Sequence record: NZ_CP027239.1
DNA length: 64,000 nucleotides
Direction: 5' to 3' (one strand)
Source of the DNA: a plasmid
Shown here: positions 36,634-43,490 of the stretch, in pieces
Layout: every line of letters begins with the position of its first letter
Position numbering within the stretch: position 1 is the first letter of the stretch
Program-made: the position numbers and the translations under genes
The notes under the pieces: model-generated
The model's database searches: none
What the model was told of the DNA's origin: nothing
The model's input: only the letters and a program-made list of their open reading frames with translations

Positions 36634-37517
36634 TCGCCTCCGGCACGACCACCACGGTGGTTCAGCTTTCGGACCTGCGCGTCTACCCCGCAGGCAACTA
36701 CGCCGCCACCAACCGGCCCGCGCCACTGTGGGAAGCCAACTACACGGACGACCCCGCGAGATTGGGGCAGCAGTTTGTCGACCCGATTATCGAGGCCGTA
36801 GGGCCGCATTGCGGGCCGTCACTGCTGAACGTGACCGGAGCGCCCGGCGTCTATCTGGGGCTGGATGCCGCGATCACCAACGACGGCTACTCCGATGGTC
36901 CGCTGGTGTGGCTGATGCCGTGCCTGATCGTCGCGGGCCGGGAGGTGCTCCGGCTCGCACCGGAGCCGCTGGCGTTCAGCGACCTTTACCCCGAGCACCT
37001 GGGAGGGGATGGCGAGGTGATCGCCAGTCCGGACGCCACCCACTCGAGTAACGCCGCGTTTCTGGCCGAGCTCGCGCCGCGTGTGTGCGAGCGCCTCAAC
37101 CTCTACTTCGCCTCCCGCCACGAGACCGCTCTGACAGTGCCGGAGGTGGACGGGTGGGCGCGGGACTGCGCCTGGGTGCGCATCGAGACTGGCCTCTCCT
37201 TTGATAAACGGGGGCGCCCAGCTATCGCCGACACCGCTCGAGCCGCAGGTGAGGCGTTCGGGCTCGCGTCGGTAGGCCCGCGATCCACGCTGTACGAGCA
37301 GCTCGAATCACTCGCGGCCGGCGTGGTGGAGCTCGCTCCCCGCATGGAGGCGGACTTTGTGGGCCACGACGGATCGGGTGGCCCGTTCGTCGACTTTCAC
37401 GGCCCGGTCGATGCGTTGACTCCCGCCGCGCGGTCCTTCCTGGCCGAGCTGTCAGCCGATCGCCGGATGACGATCGAGGCCGTGGTCGACGGGGCGGAAA
37501 TACTGAGAGGGAACTGA
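36630..37517 (+). CDS. hypothetical protein (295 aa), paralog of 32896..33792
   Basis: GTGA start/stop overlap; see 32896..33792. Confidence 0.6.
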   Translation: MIASGTTTTVVQLSDLRVYPAGNYAATNRPAPLWEANYTDDPARLGQQFVDPIIEAVGPHCGPSLLNVTGAPGVYLGLDAAITNDGYSDGPLVWLMPCLIVAGREVLRLAPEPLAFSDLYPEHLGGDGEVIASPDATHSSNAAFLAELAPRVCERLNLYFASRHETALTVPEVDGWARDCAWVRIETGLSFDKRGRPAIADTARAAGEAFGLASVGPRSTLYEQLESLAAGVVELAPRMEADFVGHDGSGGPFVDFHGPVDALTPAARSFLAELSADRRMTIEAVVDGAEILRGN

Positions 37518-37593
37518 CCCGGATTGCACAGCGGACGGCGAGAGTCGTGACCTGCGCCGTTGTCGGCGCAGGTCACGAGGGGGACTGTACGGA

Positions 37594-37941
37594 TCAGGAG
37601 TAGCTGTCGAGGACTTCGCGGATCTGGGCGACGATTTCTCGGTCGGTGTTTTCGGCGTAGTCGATGAGTCGCTGATCTCCGCCTTCGGAGGGTTCGAGCA
37701 CGGCGGCAACGAGGTCGCCGATCGCGGTGCCACGCCGGTAGAGGCGGACCTCTTCGCTCGCCAGTAGTGGGAGGGGGGAGGGAAGGTGTCCGAGTCCGTA
37801 GCCGGCGAGTTCTTTGGAGATGTTGGTGACAACCGTTTCCCCGAGGCGGCTGACCCCGTAGGCGTCGCGCAGTTCGCGCATCTCGGTCACGTAGATGGTG
37901 TTGTCGTCGACGTGCTCGCCCAGGTAATCGAATCCGCTCAT
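37594..37941 (-). CDS. hypothetical acidic protein (115 aa)
   Basis: Minus-strand ORF with good GC3. Confidence 0.5.
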   Translation of the reverse strand: MSGFDYLGEHVDDNTIYVTEMRELRDAYGVSRLGETVVTNISKELAGYGLGHLPSPLPLLASEEVRLYRRGTAIGDLVAAVLEPSEGGDQRLIDYAENTDREIVAQIREVLDSYS

Positions 37942-37999
37942 GGCTGTCCTGTCTCTCGGGGGTCAACGCTGGACCCGTTAGTCGCAAGTTTACGGGAGC

Positions 38000-38235
38000 G
38001 GCTGTCACAAAACCACTGACAACGGTGGGGCTAACGTAGTGCGTCTGCGAGTTACGATGCATGTCGTAGGCTGGGTGGCAACACTGCAGGTTCGGCCCGG
38101 ACAAAAATAATGGGCGCCTCGCCCGGTTTTCGCTCGGTGACAGAAACGATGGATTGCGTCATCGCATTTCGAGTTTTTGCCGCCCCCCTCCGAACTGGCC
38201 GTTTCCGGGTGACAGAAACGGTGACAGAAACAAAT
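38000..38235. promoter_or_regulatory. repeat cluster upstream of recombinase gene: GTGACAGAAAC x3 direct plus one inverted copy (ggttttgtgacag)
   Basis: Visible repeats in a locally AT-richer stretch; candidate res/crossover or operator sites. Confidence 0.5.
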
Positions 38236-38311
38236 CTCAAATAACCTAGTTGTGTCATGCGTTTTGACCACACGTCGCTCTGTGGCGGACGAACAGGAAG
38301 GTAGGCATACC

Positions 38312-39106
38312 GTGGGTACCCAAAATCAGGCCAGAAGCGCCCAGAACCCCTCCGATTACGACCCCTTCGAGCTCGTTTTCGCGCCGCGCAGACCCCTGAT
38401 GAACCCCACCTTCGACCTGAACCAGGACTCGTGGACAGGCACGGTCTACGGCTACGCCCGGGTCTCGACCGCCGACCAGTCCCTCGATCATCAGATCGAC
38501 GCCCTCCGTCAGGCCGGCTGCGAGAAGATCTACACCGAGAAAATGAGCGGCACCCGCAACGATCGCGAGCAGCTCAAGAAGCTCTGCTACGAACTCGAGC
38601 CCGGCGATACCGTGATCGTCACCCGCCTGTCCAGAGTCAGCAGATCGAGTCGCGACACCATGAAGCTCATGGACGCCTTCGCGGAAGTGGGGGTCCGGTT
38701 CCGTGCCCTCTATGAGGCGATCGACACCGCCACCAGCACAGGCAAGCTGTTCCTGACGATCTTGTCGGGGCTCGCCGAAGCTGACCGAGAGACCATTGTG
38801 GCCTCGACCAACGCCGGGCTCGCCGCGGCCCGCGCGCGTGGAAAGAAGGGCGGTCGGCCGCCGGCCATCGACACCGAGAAAGCCAAGCGCATCCTCGACT
38901 ACATCGACCGGCTCAGCCTGGACATCGGGGAGACCGCCGACATCGTCAAGGTCAGCAAGCGCACCGTGCAGCGGTTCCTGGCGGAGAAGAAGGAATCCGA
39001 CGACGCCGGCAACGACGACTTCTACAACAAGTACGGACTGTCCAAGAAGGCGATGGCCAGCGACGTCCCCACCAGCCCCGACCCCATCGCCGAGCATGTT
39101 GCCTAA
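38312..39106 (+). CDS. small serine recombinase (resolvase/invertase family)
   Basis: YGYARVSTADQ catalytic motif, conserved R/D residues, C-terminal HTH (ETADIVKVSKRTVQRFL); start uncertain (GTG 38312 with RBS aggaagg, or ATG 38399). Confidence 0.8.
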   Translation: MGTQNQARSAQNPSDYDPFELVFAPRRPLMNPTFDLNQDSWTGTVYGYARVSTADQSLDHQIDALRQAGCEKIYTEKMSGTRNDREQLKKLCYELEPGDTVIVTRLSRVSRSSRDTMKLMDAFAEVGVRFRALYEAIDTATSTGKLFLTILSGLAEADRETIVASTNAGLAAARARGKKGGRPPAIDTEKAKRILDYIDRLSLDIGETADIVKVSKRTVQRFLAEKKESDDAGNDDFYNKYGLSKKAMASDVPTSPDPIAEHVA

Positions 39107-39246
39107 CTTCGCAGGTCAACACCGGTGAAGGTGGCCCGCGGCGCCTCGGCCCGCGGGCTACTGCGGTGGTGCTGCACCCACGGCCGCCGGGGAGAGGGTG
39201 GGTTCACGCCCGGGCAGAGCGCCCGGCCACCACTTCGGGAGGACCC

Positions 39247-39825
39247 ATGGGAAACAGCACCACCATCAAGGGCGAACTGACCATCCCCACCACCGCGATC
39301 ACCGCCTGGGCAGATGCCAACGACCTCGACCCAGCCACCGTCGACGTCAAGGCCGAGCTCTACTCAGCCCTCTTCGTGCGCTGCTCCGAGAACGTCGACC
39401 CGGAGGACGCCATCCACGAGATCAAGGCCACCGACGATGAGGTGACCGTCAACCTGTACGGCGACTGGGCCAGCGGGGTGTTCGACGATCTCCTTCGCGA
39501 GCTCGCCGGCCACGGGGTACGTGGCCGCATCACGTTCCCCGAAGAGCACTGGGGGTACGACCTCGAAAACAACGCCGTGACCTGCATCGAAGCCGAACTG
39601 ATGTGGCCCGACGAGGAGGCCACGCTCATCACCGTCGACGCCCCCAGCCTGGGAACCCACCAGGCGATCTACACCCACGATCGGCCCGGCCGCCGAGGCA
39701 TGGCCACGCTGCTGGAGCGGTGGCTAGGACAGAAGTCGACTGCCTGCGACCTCGACGAAGTGCTCGCCGAACTCGTCGCCGCCGGCGCCACCGTCACCCG
39801 CACCACGGTGCCGTTCAACCCCTGA
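39247..39825 (+). CDS. hypothetical protein (192 aa), paralog of 34031..34606
   Basis: Motif 70 bp upstream; RBS gggaggac. Confidence 0.6.
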   Translation: MGNSTTIKGELTIPTTAITAWADANDLDPATVDVKAELYSALFVRCSENVDPEDAIHEIKATDDEVTVNLYGDWASGVFDDLLRELAGHGVRGRITFPEEHWGYDLENNAVTCIEAELMWPDEEATLITVDAPSLGTHQAIYTHDRPGRRGMATLLERWLGQKSTACDLDEVLAELVAAGATVTRTTVPFNP

Positions 39826-39887
39826 CCCGACGGGCGGTGCAGGCCCCGCGCCCGCCAGCACGGACCGCAGCAGAAGGAACCACCACC

Positions 39888-40145
39888 ATGTCGAACAACA
39901 CCGGCCCCACCATCTCCAACTGGCCCGCTCAGGACCTGTGGCTCGGCCAGTTCATCTACCTGGACGGATCCAGCTGGGTGCACATCGCGCAGTCCCGCGC
40001 GGCCGCGTTCGAGGCGCTGGCAGCGAAAGAAGAGCTGGAGATCCCCGCGGGGCAGACCGCGCAGCAGGTTGTGGAGGAGATGCTCGGCGAGTCCGAGACA
40101 ACCTCCTACAACGTGACGCCGGTGGACTCCACGAGCTTTGCCTGA
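39888..40145 (+). CDS. hypothetical protein (85 aa)
   Basis: RBS gaaggaacc. Confidence 0.5.
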   Translation: MSNNTGPTISNWPAQDLWLGQFIYLDGSSWVHIAQSRAAAFEALAAKEELEIPAGQTAQQVVEEMLGESETTSYNVTPVDSTSFA

Positions 40146-40252
40146 CCGTCATCGCTGCAGGTGCCCCCAGGCTTTCCCCTGGGGCACTGGTACCTGCGTT
40201 GCTGACGGCTGCCGCCGACGGAGTGGACTGCAGAGGGCCGTTTTCGCGGCGG

Positions 40253-40906
40253 CTACTGGAAGAAGACCGGTTCGCCGAGCTCGTCGGCCCAGCCCTCGGG
40301 CAGCCTCCACTCGACGCGGTTCCCATTCACCGCGTAGCCGATGATGTCGGGACCGCCATTCTCGGTGCCGACAGGGACGCTCAAAGTGGTGGCTCCCTTC
40401 GCTTTCGAGTTGGGCGGCAGATTGAGGATCTGTTTCGACCCGTCGCATGAGAAGACCAGGTCGTCGTCGAGGCTATTTACCTCGATATTCTGGATCACTT
40501 CTCCCTCGTCGTTAGCGTAGTAGAAGTCCGAGGACCACAGCCACTCTGGATATTCGTATGTGCCCACCTCGACATCGGCCTCGAACTTGATTTGGCGAAT
40601 CTCGCCGGTGACCCCCTCCTCTGCGAAGTCGGGGATAGAGTCGTAGCTAACCGCTTTGCATCCGGTCGCGTCGAGACGCGAGTTGGAGATAGTAATCAGA
40701 GGGGTTCCAGTGTCGTCTGTGAGCGTGACCGGTTCACCGAGGGCGACCTCGACCGCACCGCGTTCGTTGGTTTCCTGCACCTGCTCAGCAGCGGTCTCAG
40801 CGGGGGATGCGGCAGGCTCAAAGCCACCGTCGTCGTCGTTGCTGCACCCCGCCAAGGTGAGCGCGGATATGGTGAACGCCACTGCGGGAAATAGGCTTCG
40901 TTTCAT
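40253..40906 (-). CDS. secreted lipoprotein
   Basis: MKRSLFPAVAFTISALTLAGCS signal peptide with lipobox; acidic mature domain. Confidence 0.6.
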   Translation of the reverse strand: MKRSLFPAVAFTISALTLAGCSNDDDGGFEPAASPAETAAEQVQETNERGAVEVALGEPVTLTDDTGTPLITISNSRLDATGCKAVSYDSIPDFAEEGVTGEIRQIKFEADVEVGTYEYPEWLWSSDFYYANDEGEVIQNIEVNSLDDDLVFSCDGSKQILNLPPNSKAKGATTLSVPVGTENGGPDIIGYAVNGNRVEWRLPEGWADELGEPVFFQ

Positions 40907-41082
40907 GCCGCTCAGAGTACGGTAGCGCTCTCACTTAGGTGCACAGTAGCGGCATTTGTCTCGGCTGGATTCAGCTACGCTCGTGTCAACCGTAAAGTGC
41001 GACTACGATTGCATTCGACCGGCCACCGACATGGAGCGCGGTTGATCCATTCCGGCGACCAGAGTCAGCATTAGGAGCGCAT

Positions 41083-41433
41083 ATGGCTGTCCGTTACGAA
41101 ACCATTTACGTCGACGATCTCGATGGCGCCGAAATAGAAGGCGGCCGGGCTGAAACGATCGAGTTCGCCTTCGACGGCAAGACCTACACAATCGACCTCG
41201 ACGAACAGAACGCCGCCGCGTTCCGTGAGGCCATTCAGCCGTACCTCTCGGCGGCCCGCCCGGCGGACAACGGCAAGAAGCGGGCAGCCAAGACCGCCCG
41301 CCGCTCGAGCTCCTCGACCACCAAGAGCGAGACGGGGAAGATCCGCGCGTGGGCCCGAGCCAACGGCTACACCGTGTCTGACCGCGGCCGGATTCCGGCC
41401 GACATCATGGAAGCGTACCGCGCCGCCAACTAG
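41083..41433 (+). CDS. lsr2: Lsr2-like nucleoid-associated protein (xenogeneic silencer)
   Basis: ~115 aa; N-terminal oligomerisation region; basic linker; C-terminal RGRIPADIMEAY AT-hook-like DNA-binding motif typical of Lsr2. Confidence 0.75.
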   Translation: MAVRYETIYVDDLDGAEIEGGRAETIEFAFDGKTYTIDLDEQNAAAFREAIQPYLSAARPADNGKKRAAKTARRSSSSTTKSETGKIRAWARANGYTVSDRGRIPADIMEAYRAAN

Positions 41434-41479
41434 GGCGTGTCTCCCATAGCTCGGCGGTGACTCGCGAGACCGTGGCCGT

Positions 41480-41899
41480 ATGGGACAGACGAAGTCACGG
41501 TTCCGCCAGTTCACCGACCAGCAGTGGGAGCGGATCGAGCCCCTGCTGCCCTCGAATGCAGGGCGGCAGGGGCATCCGTTTCGAGACAACCGCAAGATCG
41601 TCGAGGCGATCATCTACCGCTACCGAGCAGGGATCCCGTGGCGGGATCTGCCCCGCGACGAATACGGGGCGTGGCAGACGGTGTGGAAGCGCCACGCCCG
41701 CTACGCACGGGACGGGACCTGGGATCGTATCTTGCACGTGATCCTGGCCGATGCCGATGCGGCCGGAAAGATCGACTGGAACGTTTCGGTTGATGCGACG
41801 ATCTGCCGTGCTCATCAGCACGGCACGAACACCACCCGCCCTGATCAGGACACAGGGGGCCAGGTCGAATCACAAGAACCGATCCTTCCGGGACTGTGA
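41480..41899 (+). CDS. IS5-family transposase orfA (N-terminal DNA-binding part)
   Basis: QQWERIEPLLP...GRQGHPFRDNRKIVEAIIYRYRAGIPWRDLP matches the N-terminal region of IS5/IS427/IS1031 transposases. Confidence 0.75.
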   Translation: MGQTKSRFRQFTDQQWERIEPLLPSNAGRQGHPFRDNRKIVEAIIYRYRAGIPWRDLPRDEYGAWQTVWKRHARYARDGTWDRILHVILADADAAGKIDWNVSVDATICRAHQHGTNTTRPDQDTGGQVESQEPILPGL

Positions 41900-42336
41900 A
41901 CCCGCAGGTCGCGAATGTGGTCACCGGCGGGCAGCGCAATGATGGTGCGATGCTCGCTGAAGTACTGGCCGACATCCATGTACCGCGCCTTGGCCGTGGC
42001 CGGCCTCGCACCCGCCCGGACGCGGTGATCGCAGACAAGGCGTACTCGTCCGGCACGATCCGCCGCCAGCTCCGCAGTCGCGGTATCGCCGCCGTGATCC
42101 CAGAGAAGAGTGACACCATTGACGCCCGCGCCCGGCGGGGAAGACGCGGCGGCCGGCCGCCGAAACTCGACGTTGACCTCTACAGAGGGCGAAACGTCGT
42201 TGAGCGCTCCTTCGCTCTGGCCAAGCAGTGGCGCGCCCTGGCCACCCGCTACGACAAACTCGCGATCACCTACCGCGCCGCCGTCACCCTCTGCGCCATC
42301 CTGACCTGGCTACGCCATTTAGGAGAGACGCCCTAG
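41896..42336 (+). CDS. IS5-family transposase orfB (DDE catalytic part; expressed by programmed frameshift from orfA)
   Basis: VIADKAYSS...RGIAAVIP...RNVVERSFALAKQWRALATRYDK = DDE_Tnp_1 C-terminal signature. Confidence 0.7.
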   Translation: MNPQVANVVTGGQRNDGAMLAEVLADIHVPRLGRGRPRTRPDAVIADKAYSSGTIRRQLRSRGIAAVIPEKSDTIDARARRGRRGGRPPKLDVDLYRGRNVVERSFALAKQWRALATRYDKLAITYRAAVTLCAILTWLRHLGETP

Positions 42337-42938
42337 CTTCTCGCCAGGGCGCGGACCCACTGTGAGGTCTGTGACGGATGCGTCAGATGGACAACGTGTA
42401 GCCCGGGAAACCGGCCCTCCAACGTCGGTATCACTGGCTTGAGCTTCTTCCGCGTGTGCCAGCCCCATCGCAGAATGTGGTCCTCGTCGATGAGGGTTTT
42501 CCATAGCGGCGGCTCGTAGTTCCCGTTCCAAAGTTGCTCGCGCTGCAAGCGTCGGCGGACCGTCCGACGGATGAGGCGGGCCATCTGGATCCTTGTCGGG
42601 TAGTCCAGCCACAGGATGGTGTCAGCTCGGGAGACGATAAGGGGCCGCGCTTCGCGGTACTGCAATTCAACAACCCAGCAAGGTGTCGAGATCAAGTCCT
42701 CTACGTCTTCGAGAAAAGTCTCTCGCCGGGTCCAGTTTGGGCCGTGGTAGAGACTGTCCAACTCGACGCGCTCGCAACGCAGGACTTCTGCCAGCTCATC
42801 GCACAAGGTCGTCTTTCCCGAGCCAGAGACTCCAGCTACCGCGATGCGCTTAGGCCCCCAGGTGATCCTGTCATCAGCGTTGAGCACTGTCCTATTATCC
42901 GCACTTCGCATAGAAGCAGGACCCGGGCTCCCCCACAC
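42333..42938 (-). CDS. P-loop NTPase / small nucleotide-kinase-like protein
   Basis: Walker A GVSGSGKTT near N-terminus, ~190 aa, adenylate-kinase-like size; bracketed by IS inverted-repeat copies. Confidence 0.55.
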   Translation of the reverse strand: MWGSPGPASMRSADNRTVLNADDRITWGPKRIAVAGVSGSGKTTLCDELAEVLRCERVELDSLYHGPNWTRRETFLEDVEDLISTPCWVVELQYREARPLIVSRADTILWLDYPTRIQMARLIRRTVRRRLQREQLWNGNYEPPLWKTLIDEDHILRWGWHTRKKLKPVIPTLEGRFPGLHVVHLTHPSQTSQWVRALARS

Positions 42939-42974
42939 CCACTTACTCGCCCCATCCAGTGGGTCACCGATTAG

Positions 42975-42996
42975 CTATAGGAGACACGCCCTAGCC
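42975..42996 (-). repeat. third copy of the IS terminal inverted repeat (21/22 match to left IR, opposite orientation)
   Basis: ctataggagacacgccctag = reverse complement of ctagggcgtgtctcccatag. Confidence 0.75.
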
Positions 42997-43172
42997 GCCG
43001 AGGCACCGCCAGGGCCCGGCTCCGAAGAACGTTTTCGGGGCCGGGCCCTTTCGCGTCCACGGCGCACGAGCCGGGCGGGTGGCTGTCGGCAGCGAACTGC
43101 TGCACCTAGATGGGGCGGCAGCACAGTAAGGGCATGCCAGTCGCACCGCACACCAGCACGGAGGAGCACGCC

Positions 43173-43490
43173 ATGGACACCATCACCGACACCCGCACCT
43201 TCACCTTCGAGGGCACACCCATCAACCCCGAGCACCCCGACTTCGGTGGCGCCCCGGCGTTCACCTCCGCCACCGGCCTGGACGAGGTTCGCTCTCGCAT
43301 CGACACCGTCTTCGAGGGCAAGGCGCTGCCGTGGCGCCAGGTACTCTCCCTGGCTGGCACCTACGGAGTGGTGTACCTGCCCGACGACGTGCGCGGCACT
43401 CTCGCCGGGATCGCCGACCGTCTCGCTGTCGGTGCAGGCGTCGCGGTGCACGACGCTGACGAGGTCGTGACCATGACCCGTACCGCCTGA
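43173..43490 (+). CDS. hypothetical protein (105 aa)
   Basis: Motif 68 bp upstream; RBS ggaggagcac. Confidence 0.5.
   Translation: MDTITDTRTFTFEGTPINPEHPDFGGAPAFTSATGLDEVRSRIDTVFEGKALPWRQVLSLAGTYGVVYLPDDVRGTLAGIADRLAVGAGVAVHDADEVVTMTRTA

Follow-up and report, generated by a model that had tools for sequence, protein, structure and literature searches.

A probable passenger-carrying derivative of an IS5-family insertion sequence at the stop codon of an lsr2-family gene

The IS427 group of the IS5 family comprises insertion sequences (ISs) of about 830-865 bp with 13-21-bp inverted repeats (IRs), a 2-bp direct repeat of the target, and two overlapping open reading frames (ORFs) (PMC3281130). 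The target duplication is occasionally 4 bp long, and the complete DDE motif is present only in the frameshift fusion of the two ORFs. IS derivatives that contain passenger genes have been named transporter ISs (tIS), following a definition cited in PMC9330008. Mobile insertion cassettes (MICs) are non-autonomous and have no internal transposase gene (PMC3281130). Here we describe a stretch of 64,000 nt from the plasmid sequence record NZ_CP027239.1 (the window), whose genes have their best protein matches in Dietzia, near D. cinnamea and Dietzia sp. oral taxon 368. Positions 41433-42991 of the window very probably constitute a 1559-bp passenger-carrying derivative of an IS5-family IS that is IS427-like in size, IRs and 2-bp duplication, and that was inserted as a single unit into a CTAG overlapping the stop codon of an lsr2-family gene with duplication of TA. 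An earlier note on this DNA had offered two readings, namely (a) a passenger-carrying IS of ~1.57 kb mobilising a kinase-like gene and (b) a complete IS next to a solo IR relic. Our comparisons bear out the first by an empty site and by the same block elsewhere; the second is probably right as history and wrong as a description of the present unit.

The unit reads GGGCG...CGCCC from end to end and consists of the IS, the kinase-like passenger and a solo outer end (IRL'). It lies between two copies of the target dinucleotide TA, the left one at 41431-41432 inside CTAG 41430-41433 and the right one at 42992-42993, both recognised by comparing the empty with the filled site. The uninterrupted lsr2 site that the earlier note had proposed to look for in relatives was found in five loci (L026, L027, L028, L032 and L033), one of which, L026, is D. 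cinnamea GCA_025152065.1. They were reached through the 97%-identical Lsr2 variant P0242 of D. cinnamea. When compared with the filled site of the window, the empty site consists of ...GCCGCCAACTAG followed by CCGCCGAGG; the loci read ...GCCGCCAACTAG and then CCGCCGAGGCACCGCCAGGGCCCGG, which is the left flank of the window, with the lsr2 stop (...AACTAG), joined straight to position 42995 onward. Genes common to the empty-site loci and the window lie on both sides, with a resolvase and 192-aa, 85-aa and 217-aa lipoprotein-like ORFs upstream, and a 118-aa ORF, a MarR-type regulator and an SBP_bac_5 transporter downstream. The surplus of the window amounts to 1561 nt (41434-42994), equal to the 1559-bp element plus the duplicated TA. 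Since the empty site is devoid of the IS, the kinase gene and IRL' alike, 41434-42994 represents one insertion block at CTAG. The arrangement is not an assembly artefact, since it is identical in an isolate assembly (L019, GCA_025147785.1; 100% over 4444 nt, NCBI) and is also present in a metagenome contig (L001, ENA). Exact-protein look-ups gave no match for the 201-aa kinase ORF and only the same locus for the downstream 118-aa protein, and the look-up with the exact Lsr2 protein gave no empty site, all contigs either breaking in the IS or carrying it.

The block recurs in two other contexts. In L044, a locus from a metagenome-assembled genome (MAG) labelled Rhodococcus sp., the unit lies between flanks unrelated to those of the window and differs from it by 6 mismatches in 1565 aligned nt (99.6% identity), the kinase ORF being identical at 606 of 606 positions. 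In a third context, that of L010/L012 (another MAG and a Logan contig), the unit follows immediately upon the TAG stop of an XRE-type gene and has outer boundaries identical to those in the window. Here, identity to the window is uneven (kinase 98.3%, orfB part of the transposase 88%, orfA part 82%) and the left IR is that of another lineage, which marks this copy as a recombinant mosaic. Identical outer junctions in three contexts, taken together with the empty site, make mobilisation of the unit by far the simplest account. On these comparative grounds the whole structure appears to move as a unit, as is expected of a transporter IS. Immediately beyond the left end of the composite, L010 (2015-2960) contains another IS5-family element that is unrelated to the first and encodes its transposase in one ORF of 279 aa (DUF4096 and DDE_Tnp_1).

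Three IR copies delimit the parts of the unit. The left IR of the IS (IRL; plus strand, 41430-41461 including the flanking CTA) reads CTAGGGCGTGTCTCC at 41430-41444, starting with CTAG 41430-41433. It matches the IRL of canonical copies (L014-L018) and pairs with the outer IR over 32 nt at 88%. The inner right IR (IRR, minus strand) is the right end of the canonical IS and agrees with IRL at 14 of 15 positions; the earlier note had recognised it and put it at ~42320-42335, while its actual position is 42322-42336, with TA 42334-42335 as the old insertion mark in the CTAG stop of the kinase gene. IRL' (minus strand, 42963-42994) is a solo left-end-type terminus, inverted with respect to IRL, that forms the right boundary of the mobile unit according to the repeat search and the comparisons. 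Its match to the left IR is 15/15 over 42980-42994, 21/22 over 42973-42994 and 28/32 (88%) over 42963-42994; the inverted 21/22 match had been seen before, at coordinates (42975-42996) that were 2 nt off. CTAG is present at all three ends, as had been noticed (41430, 42333 and 42991). When up to one mismatch is allowed, the IRL 15-mer has three matches in the window, all of them at this element, compared with 0.01 in shuffles.

The boundary of IRL' is exact in five different flanks (the window, L044, L010, L011/L013 and L002). Its likeness to canonical left ends extends over ~38 nt with divergence beyond, and it is situated ~55 nt upstream of the longest kinase ORF. A related IS (L040) has the 'T' variant of this repeat as its ordinary IR, which makes the remnant of a second IS copy the most likely origin of IRL'. 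Five matches, L044 among them, were obtained when one genome per species (596 Gb) was scanned with a 19-mer specific to the outer repeat; two of them (L042 and L043) were rejected, having nothing similar beyond the 19-20-nt match and corresponding roughly to the chance expectation for 596 Gb. The metagenome scan with an IRL' 21-mer retrieved a single locus, L045.

The IS proper (plus strand, 41433-42333, 901 bp) is a deletion derivative of a 975-bp element. Canonical elements in L014-L018 run from CTAGGGCGTGTCTCCCATAGCT to GGGAGACACGCCCTAG, the last 3 nt being the transposase stop, and have perfect 17-bp IRs (CTAGGGCGTGTCTCCCA); contigs of 980-982 nt in two assemblies are exactly the canonical element. 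The window query has matches in 270 plasmid records of PLSDB, each covering only 41427-42337, and neither the kinase nor the outer IR was found beside any of the many IS copies on these plasmids. As canonical copies and plasmid matches stop at the inner repeat, this repeat is the canonical right end and the ordinary IS is 975 bp long (GGGCG...CGCCC) and free of the kinase. The earlier note had held that a composite would be contradicted by copies that end at the inner IR and never co-occur with the outer one; copies of the former kind do exist (L014-L018 and the 270 plasmid records), but the IS is repeatedly accompanied by the outer IR, as in L044 and L010/L012. Elsewhere in the window, neither the IS nor the kinase gene was found again.

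The transposase is encoded on the plus strand by two ORFs. orfA (41480-41899, 139 aa; Pfam DUF4096, E 8e-28, alignment A1) represents the N-terminal part with the first catalytic-D region, and orfB (41896-42336, 146 aa; DDE_Tnp_1, E 2e-16) the C-terminal part with the rest, its TAG stop being the CTAG at the inner right end. These two domains agree with the IS5-family transposase recognised in the earlier note, as does the intact relative P0123, for which the NCBIfam model NF033580 'IS5 family transposase' gives 272.6 bits (cut-off 110). The 97%-identical protein P0121 carries the name IS5 family transposase as well. The earlier note had read the -1 frame of orfB correctly from the window, but this is not the native layout. 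Nucleotide alignment with L044 and protein alignment with 309-aa relatives locate a 74-nt internal deletion junction at 41910-41911 (plus strand), by which GHGIGRSRGGLTTKIHSAVDGRGRPL was lost and the orfA/orfB phase changed from +1 to -1. The size of 74 nt was taken from a global alignment with L044, which retains these nucleotides and has intact transposase reading frames. Intact relatives from Dietzia and Rhodococcus are 309 aa long and 82% identical, and the intact genes (L014-L018 3001-3931; L044 1722-2652) span 931 nt for 309 codons plus stop. Together with the ORF offsets in L044 this places the intact orfB in the +1 phase, so that fusion needs a +1 (or -2) shift. The shift usually quoted for such transposase fusions is -1. 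Removal of 74 nt, which is 2 modulo 3, therefore explains the -1 phase in the window.

A slippery motif was not identified. The -1 two-ORF layout of the window is evidently that of a deletion pseudogene with no programmed -1 frameshift site. PGAP places the orfA/orfB join at differing positions across the relatives in alignment A1. In the same alignment, the lost segment is missing from the window protein and from its 97%-identical twin P0121 (285 aa), invariant in eight of eight intact relatives, and comprises 24-25 invariant residues. The resident transposase of the window is probably inactive, given that the lost residues are invariant and lie between the first two catalytic aspartates.

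The passenger (minus strand, 42333-42938) is a P-loop NTPase of the nucleoside monophosphate (NMP) kinase fold with a Walker-A motif. It is absent from canonical IS copies and lies between the inner and outer IRs, in line with the earlier description. Its longest ORF comprises 201 aa, and the true start is likely GTG 42887 (184 aa) or ATG 42911. The family has 2441 actinobacterial homologues and is labelled just 'AAA family ATPase / adenylate kinase family enzyme'. Pfam matches to AAA_18/AAA_33 are under the cut-off, and the best NCBIfam match, 'DNA topology modulation protein', reaches 58 bits against a cut-off of 215. The AlphaFold (AF2) model has a pLDDT of 89.4 and TM scores of 0.5-0.6 to AK6/hCINAP, gluconokinase, shikimate kinase and polynucleotide kinase in the PDB. 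We discarded the idea of a defence or toxin gene, as PADLOC yielded P-loop-level noise only, and the PDB sequence and fold searches gave a generic NMP/sugar-kinase likeness that singles out no substrate. An 81%-identical homologue of 225 aa with a C-terminal extension occurs in D. cinnamea (L004-L009) directly upstream of a clpP-clpP pair and without adjoining IS ends. Its surroundings are variable and mobile-looking, with a Mu-type transposase plus AAA_22, a resolvase, a KfrA-like gene, YoeB/YefM and an lsr2 paralogue. The kinase homologue and the lsr2 paralogue are a few genes apart in L006; a functional lsr2-kinase link was nevertheless rejected, because the adjacency in the window was created by the insertion itself.

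Other loci appear to represent earlier and later stages of this arrangement. L047 encodes a 77%-identical kinase gene without an IS, whose 3' end ...AAGAAGCTAG (...AAGCTAG) is followed by unrelated non-IS DNA, and such a CTAG end is evidently the native target of the IS that now abuts the kinase gene. In L046 an 86%-identical kinase gene is followed by a decayed IS right-end stump and the stop TAG is mutated to TAC, and the IS-kinase junction is therefore old. This region (L046 820-1060) is an IS graveyard in which the TAC mutation extends the kinase ORF to 218 aa; ~45 nt past the stump, in front of an alpha/beta-hydrolase gene, lies another left end in which the start of orfA has suffered an internal deletion. 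L011/L013 contain IRL', the kinase and 21 nt of the right end adjoining a ParA/parS-like plasmid region, which suggests a plasmid location of this module. The neighbouring parA is preceded by an AT-richer stretch rich in GCTAGC/TTGCTAGC repeats (parS-like; L011 1323-2300 and L013). In L002/L003, IRL' and a kinase ending in ...AGTTAG are followed by host DNA. Both forms are most easily understood as the outcome of IS loss, by which the passenger was left stranded.

From these loci a sequence of events may be proposed. As these loci show, a native actinobacterial kinase-like gene with a ...CTAG end (L047) received an IS at that CTAG, with the right end beside the kinase gene. A second left-end copy, IRL' (~32-38 nt), would then have arrived ~55 nt upstream of the kinase, probably as the stump of another IS copy. 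The joint movement of the IS and the kinase into CTAR sites, which the recurrence in three contexts and the empty site indicate, may finally have come about through synapsis by the transposase of IRL with IRL' instead of IRL with IRR. Since IRL and IRL' are inverted and near-identical over the terminal 15-32 nt recognised by the transposase, both can be synapsed by it. Because the 74-nt deletion took invariant residues, further movement from this genome would need transposase supplied in trans by an intact relative. Transcription of the kinase from an IS left-end promoter may also occur, since the kinase sits behind IRL' in the usual position of orfA.

The lsr2-family gene (plus strand, 41083-41433, 116 aa) encodes a protein with matches above the cut-offs to both Pfam Lsr2 domains, PF11774 (71.8 bits, E 4e-20) and PF23359 (Lsr2_DNA-bd; 66.2 bits, E 2e-18), which substantiates the Lsr2-like identification of the earlier note. 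Its stop TAG at 41431-41433 lies inside the CTAG opening the left IR, as that note had seen, and is composed of the duplicated TA and the first G of the element. The Lsr2 protein and the stop are unaltered by the insertion, and a 97%-identical D. cinnamea orthologue stands at the empty site. A GC-rich hairpin with a TTT tail (plus strand, 42996-43064; RNAfold -51.8 kcal/mol), located 2 nt past the lsr2 stop in the empty site (L026-L028), is most likely the lsr2 terminator. The insertion displaced it by 1561 nt, which agrees with the suspected effect on the lsr2 3' region, and would have severed an accessory lsr2 gene from its terminator. Identity of the window lsr2 to the Dietzia proteins of 109-112 aa that bear the name nucleoid-structuring Lsr2 is only ~50-56%. 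The gene lies downstream of a serine-resolvase gene (38252-39106) and small hypothetical genes, in a block (37083-41433) that is conserved between D. cinnamea and D. maris and has variable downstream neighbours. It probably represents an accessory paralogue rather than the core nucleoid gene. The lsr2 loci of the D. maris type (L034-L039) differ in the sequence downstream and are uninformative on the insertion site.

Six insertions of this IS group occurred at C-TA-G or C-TA-A with duplication of TA, in keeping with the CTAG preference assumed in the earlier note. The lsr2 site taken alone allows a repeat of either TA or CTAG; TA is the sole repeat that is consistent across L041, L045, L010 and L044. 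CTAG is strongly under-represented in the window (68% G+C), for which base composition predicts 188 sites and a Markov estimate 83. There are 35, and about one third of these overlap the stop of a long open frame. Since an in-frame TAG is impossible inside a gene, an IS that seeks CTAG often hits stop codons, and four landings at a stop or 3' end were seen (the lsr2 stop, the kinase stop, the XRE-gene stop in L010 and the 3' end of the L041/L045 passenger). The landing on the lsr2 stop codon would thus be expected from CTAR/TA targeting in a CTAG-poor genome and not be special to lsr2. Other D. cinnamea samples (L029 1169-1430 and L030 1239-1268, corresponding to window 41430) contain a canonical IS of another lineage at the lsr2 CTAG in the opposite orientation, with its right end beside lsr2. 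This makes the lsr2 CTAG a hot spot with three known states: empty, occupied by this unit, or occupied by an inverted IS.

A sister composite was found in L041 (Rhodococcus sp. HNM0563, 71-2561) and L045 (a JGI metagenome, 107-2608), which share 2502 nt at 99.1% identity between flanks that differ on both sides. It is made up of an IS of this family, a 467-aa FAD-linked oxidase and a 30-nt IRL' variant (TAGGGCGTGTCTCCTATAGCTAAGCGGTGA) bounding this different passenger. The oxidase has the Pfam domains FAD_binding_4 and ALO, is DprE1-like by motif, and has an ORF that extends by a few codons into the left end of the IS; the unit is evidently a mobile extra copy of a dprE1-like gene. The IS orientation is reversed, leaving IRR and IRL' as the outer ends. 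Within this IS group, the combination of an IS at the 3' end of a gene with a solo upstream end thus occurs repeatedly. The same IRL' variant occurs with two unrelated passengers, each paired with a different IS lineage and orientation. One might speculate that IRL' is a portable 'capture end' rather than two independent IS stumps, and that this IS group in Mycobacteriales systematically builds mobile single-gene cassettes from a full IS at a CTAG stop and a solo upstream end; we regard this as rather unlikely. If true, the passenger gene would also be placed under the IS left-end promoter.

Several observations weigh against a single mobile unit or weaken the case for it. Its movement is inferred from comparative contexts and no event was observed, the source of IRL' is likewise inferred only, and a 2-bp TA duplication alone carries little statistical weight. 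The terminal base differs in L044 (AGGCG vs GGGCG). The IS half of L010 evidently derives from another lineage, so recombination between IS copies also contributed to shaping these units. The kinase module exists without the IS in L011/L013, where 21 nt of IRR are left, and in L002, where no IRR is left, and the unit is thus not always stable or intact. Furthermore, a sigma-70 scan of 40900-43300 showed no promoter-like site; two terminator-like matches in the same region are at chance level.

Reading (b) in its strict form would hold that a complete IS came to lie beside a pre-existing kinase gene with a solo IR relic, so that the parts are merely adjacent and the larger unit never moved. Canonical IS copies that stop at the inner IR, the kinase with IRL' but without a full IS in L002 and L011/L013, and the independent hit of the lsr2-stop hot spot by a canonical IS in L029/L030 would all fit this view. 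We nevertheless consider it very improbable, for the empty site is free of the kinase and IRL' as well as of the IS, and a three-part block with the same outer boundaries between unrelated flanks (L044, L010/L012) would mean that one and the same two-step assembly had taken place three times or more. Placement of the block at lsr2 by homologous recombination or gene conversion, e.g. with an IS copy resident at the hot-spot CTAG, also appears improbable. Another IS of the family does occupy the same CTAG in D. cinnamea samples L029/L030 and the L010 unit is clearly mosaic. However, the L029/L030 IS is of another lineage and opposite in orientation, the kinase side offers only the ~32 nt of IS homology in IRL', and the junctions lie exactly at the IR tips with TA on either side.

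The kinase-like P-loop protein could also be a functional transposon accessory, i.e. a helper or regulatory NTPase like IstB or TnsC, and not an unrelated passenger. It is packed tightly against the transposase gene, the two stops sharing one CTAG, and it has been carried along in at least three contexts. Yet hundreds of related IS copies have no kinase, homologues are widespread as stand-alone actinobacterial genes, and the predicted fold is that of a small-molecule/NMP kinase and not of an AAA+ ATPase. The IS-kinase junction corresponds to an ordinary IS insertion into the native CTAG of the gene, and the sister composite (L041/L045) bears a quite different passenger. An accessory role therefore seems scarcely credible to us.

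For annotation, a single passenger-carrying unit would mean that the kinase-like gene is part of a mobile element and not of the lsr2 neighbourhood. The lsr2 site is polymorphic in D. cinnamea and could serve as a strain marker. Known IS biology is unchanged by any of these findings; the comparative series is unusually complete, with natural examples for each stage of gene capture. These comprise a native CTAG-ending gene (L047), the IS-at-stop stage, represented only as a decayed remnant (L046), the composite with an extra end (the window, L044, L010), the empty target (L026 and others), a transposase-dead copy (the window) and stranded passengers (L002, L011).

When compared with described systems, the IS itself appears closest to the IS427 group (IS1248 and the ISPa/ISPpa elements of Paracoccus; PMC3281130). 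It shares with this group a DDE transposase with DUF4096 and DDE_Tnp_1, a length of ~0.9-1 kb, terminal IRs of ~15-17 bp and a 2-bp TA duplication; two overlapping ORFs are likewise present and would have to be fused by frameshifting. Size, IRs, duplication and the pair of ORFs would fit membership according to the group description (PMC3281130). It differs in the size of the canonical element (975 bp vs 830-865 bp; PMC3281130), in the +1 instead of -1 phase of orfB in intact relatives, and in the 74-nt deletion of the window copy. Unlike a MIC, the unit holds a transposase gene, albeit a damaged one. The kinase-only form in L011/L013 resembles a MIC as a non-transposase gene bracketed by IS-end sequences; however, its IS ends are direct and not inverted, and it would be a deletion product and not a functional MIC. 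With transposable modules (TMos) and ISEcp1-type units (PMC3281130, PMC9330008) our element has in common that one IS moves together with adjacent DNA by means of an end other than its own second IR. The surrogate ends of TMos are weakly similar and variable in position, whereas here a true IR copy (21/22; 28/32) is used at a fixed position. A compound transposon with one decayed arm is likewise similar, with IS ends on both sides of a gene, one arm reduced to a stump, and variants in which loss of the IS leaves the gene stranded (L002, L011/L013). Derivatives of Tn6330 with mcr-1 and ISApl1 are the comparator for this type. In our case, two complete IS copies were not found together in any version; the second arm amounts to an end of 32-38 nt, and this stump keeps a full-length, near-perfect terminal repeat, so that the unit stays mobilisable. 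The tIS, as defined in PMC9330008, shares with our element a transposase and a non-transposition gene within one pair of terminal IRs and the presence of the unit at several sites. In contrast to the classical tIS, the original inner right IR is kept here between transposase and passenger, and the element therefore has three ends and is in principle mobile with or without its passenger.

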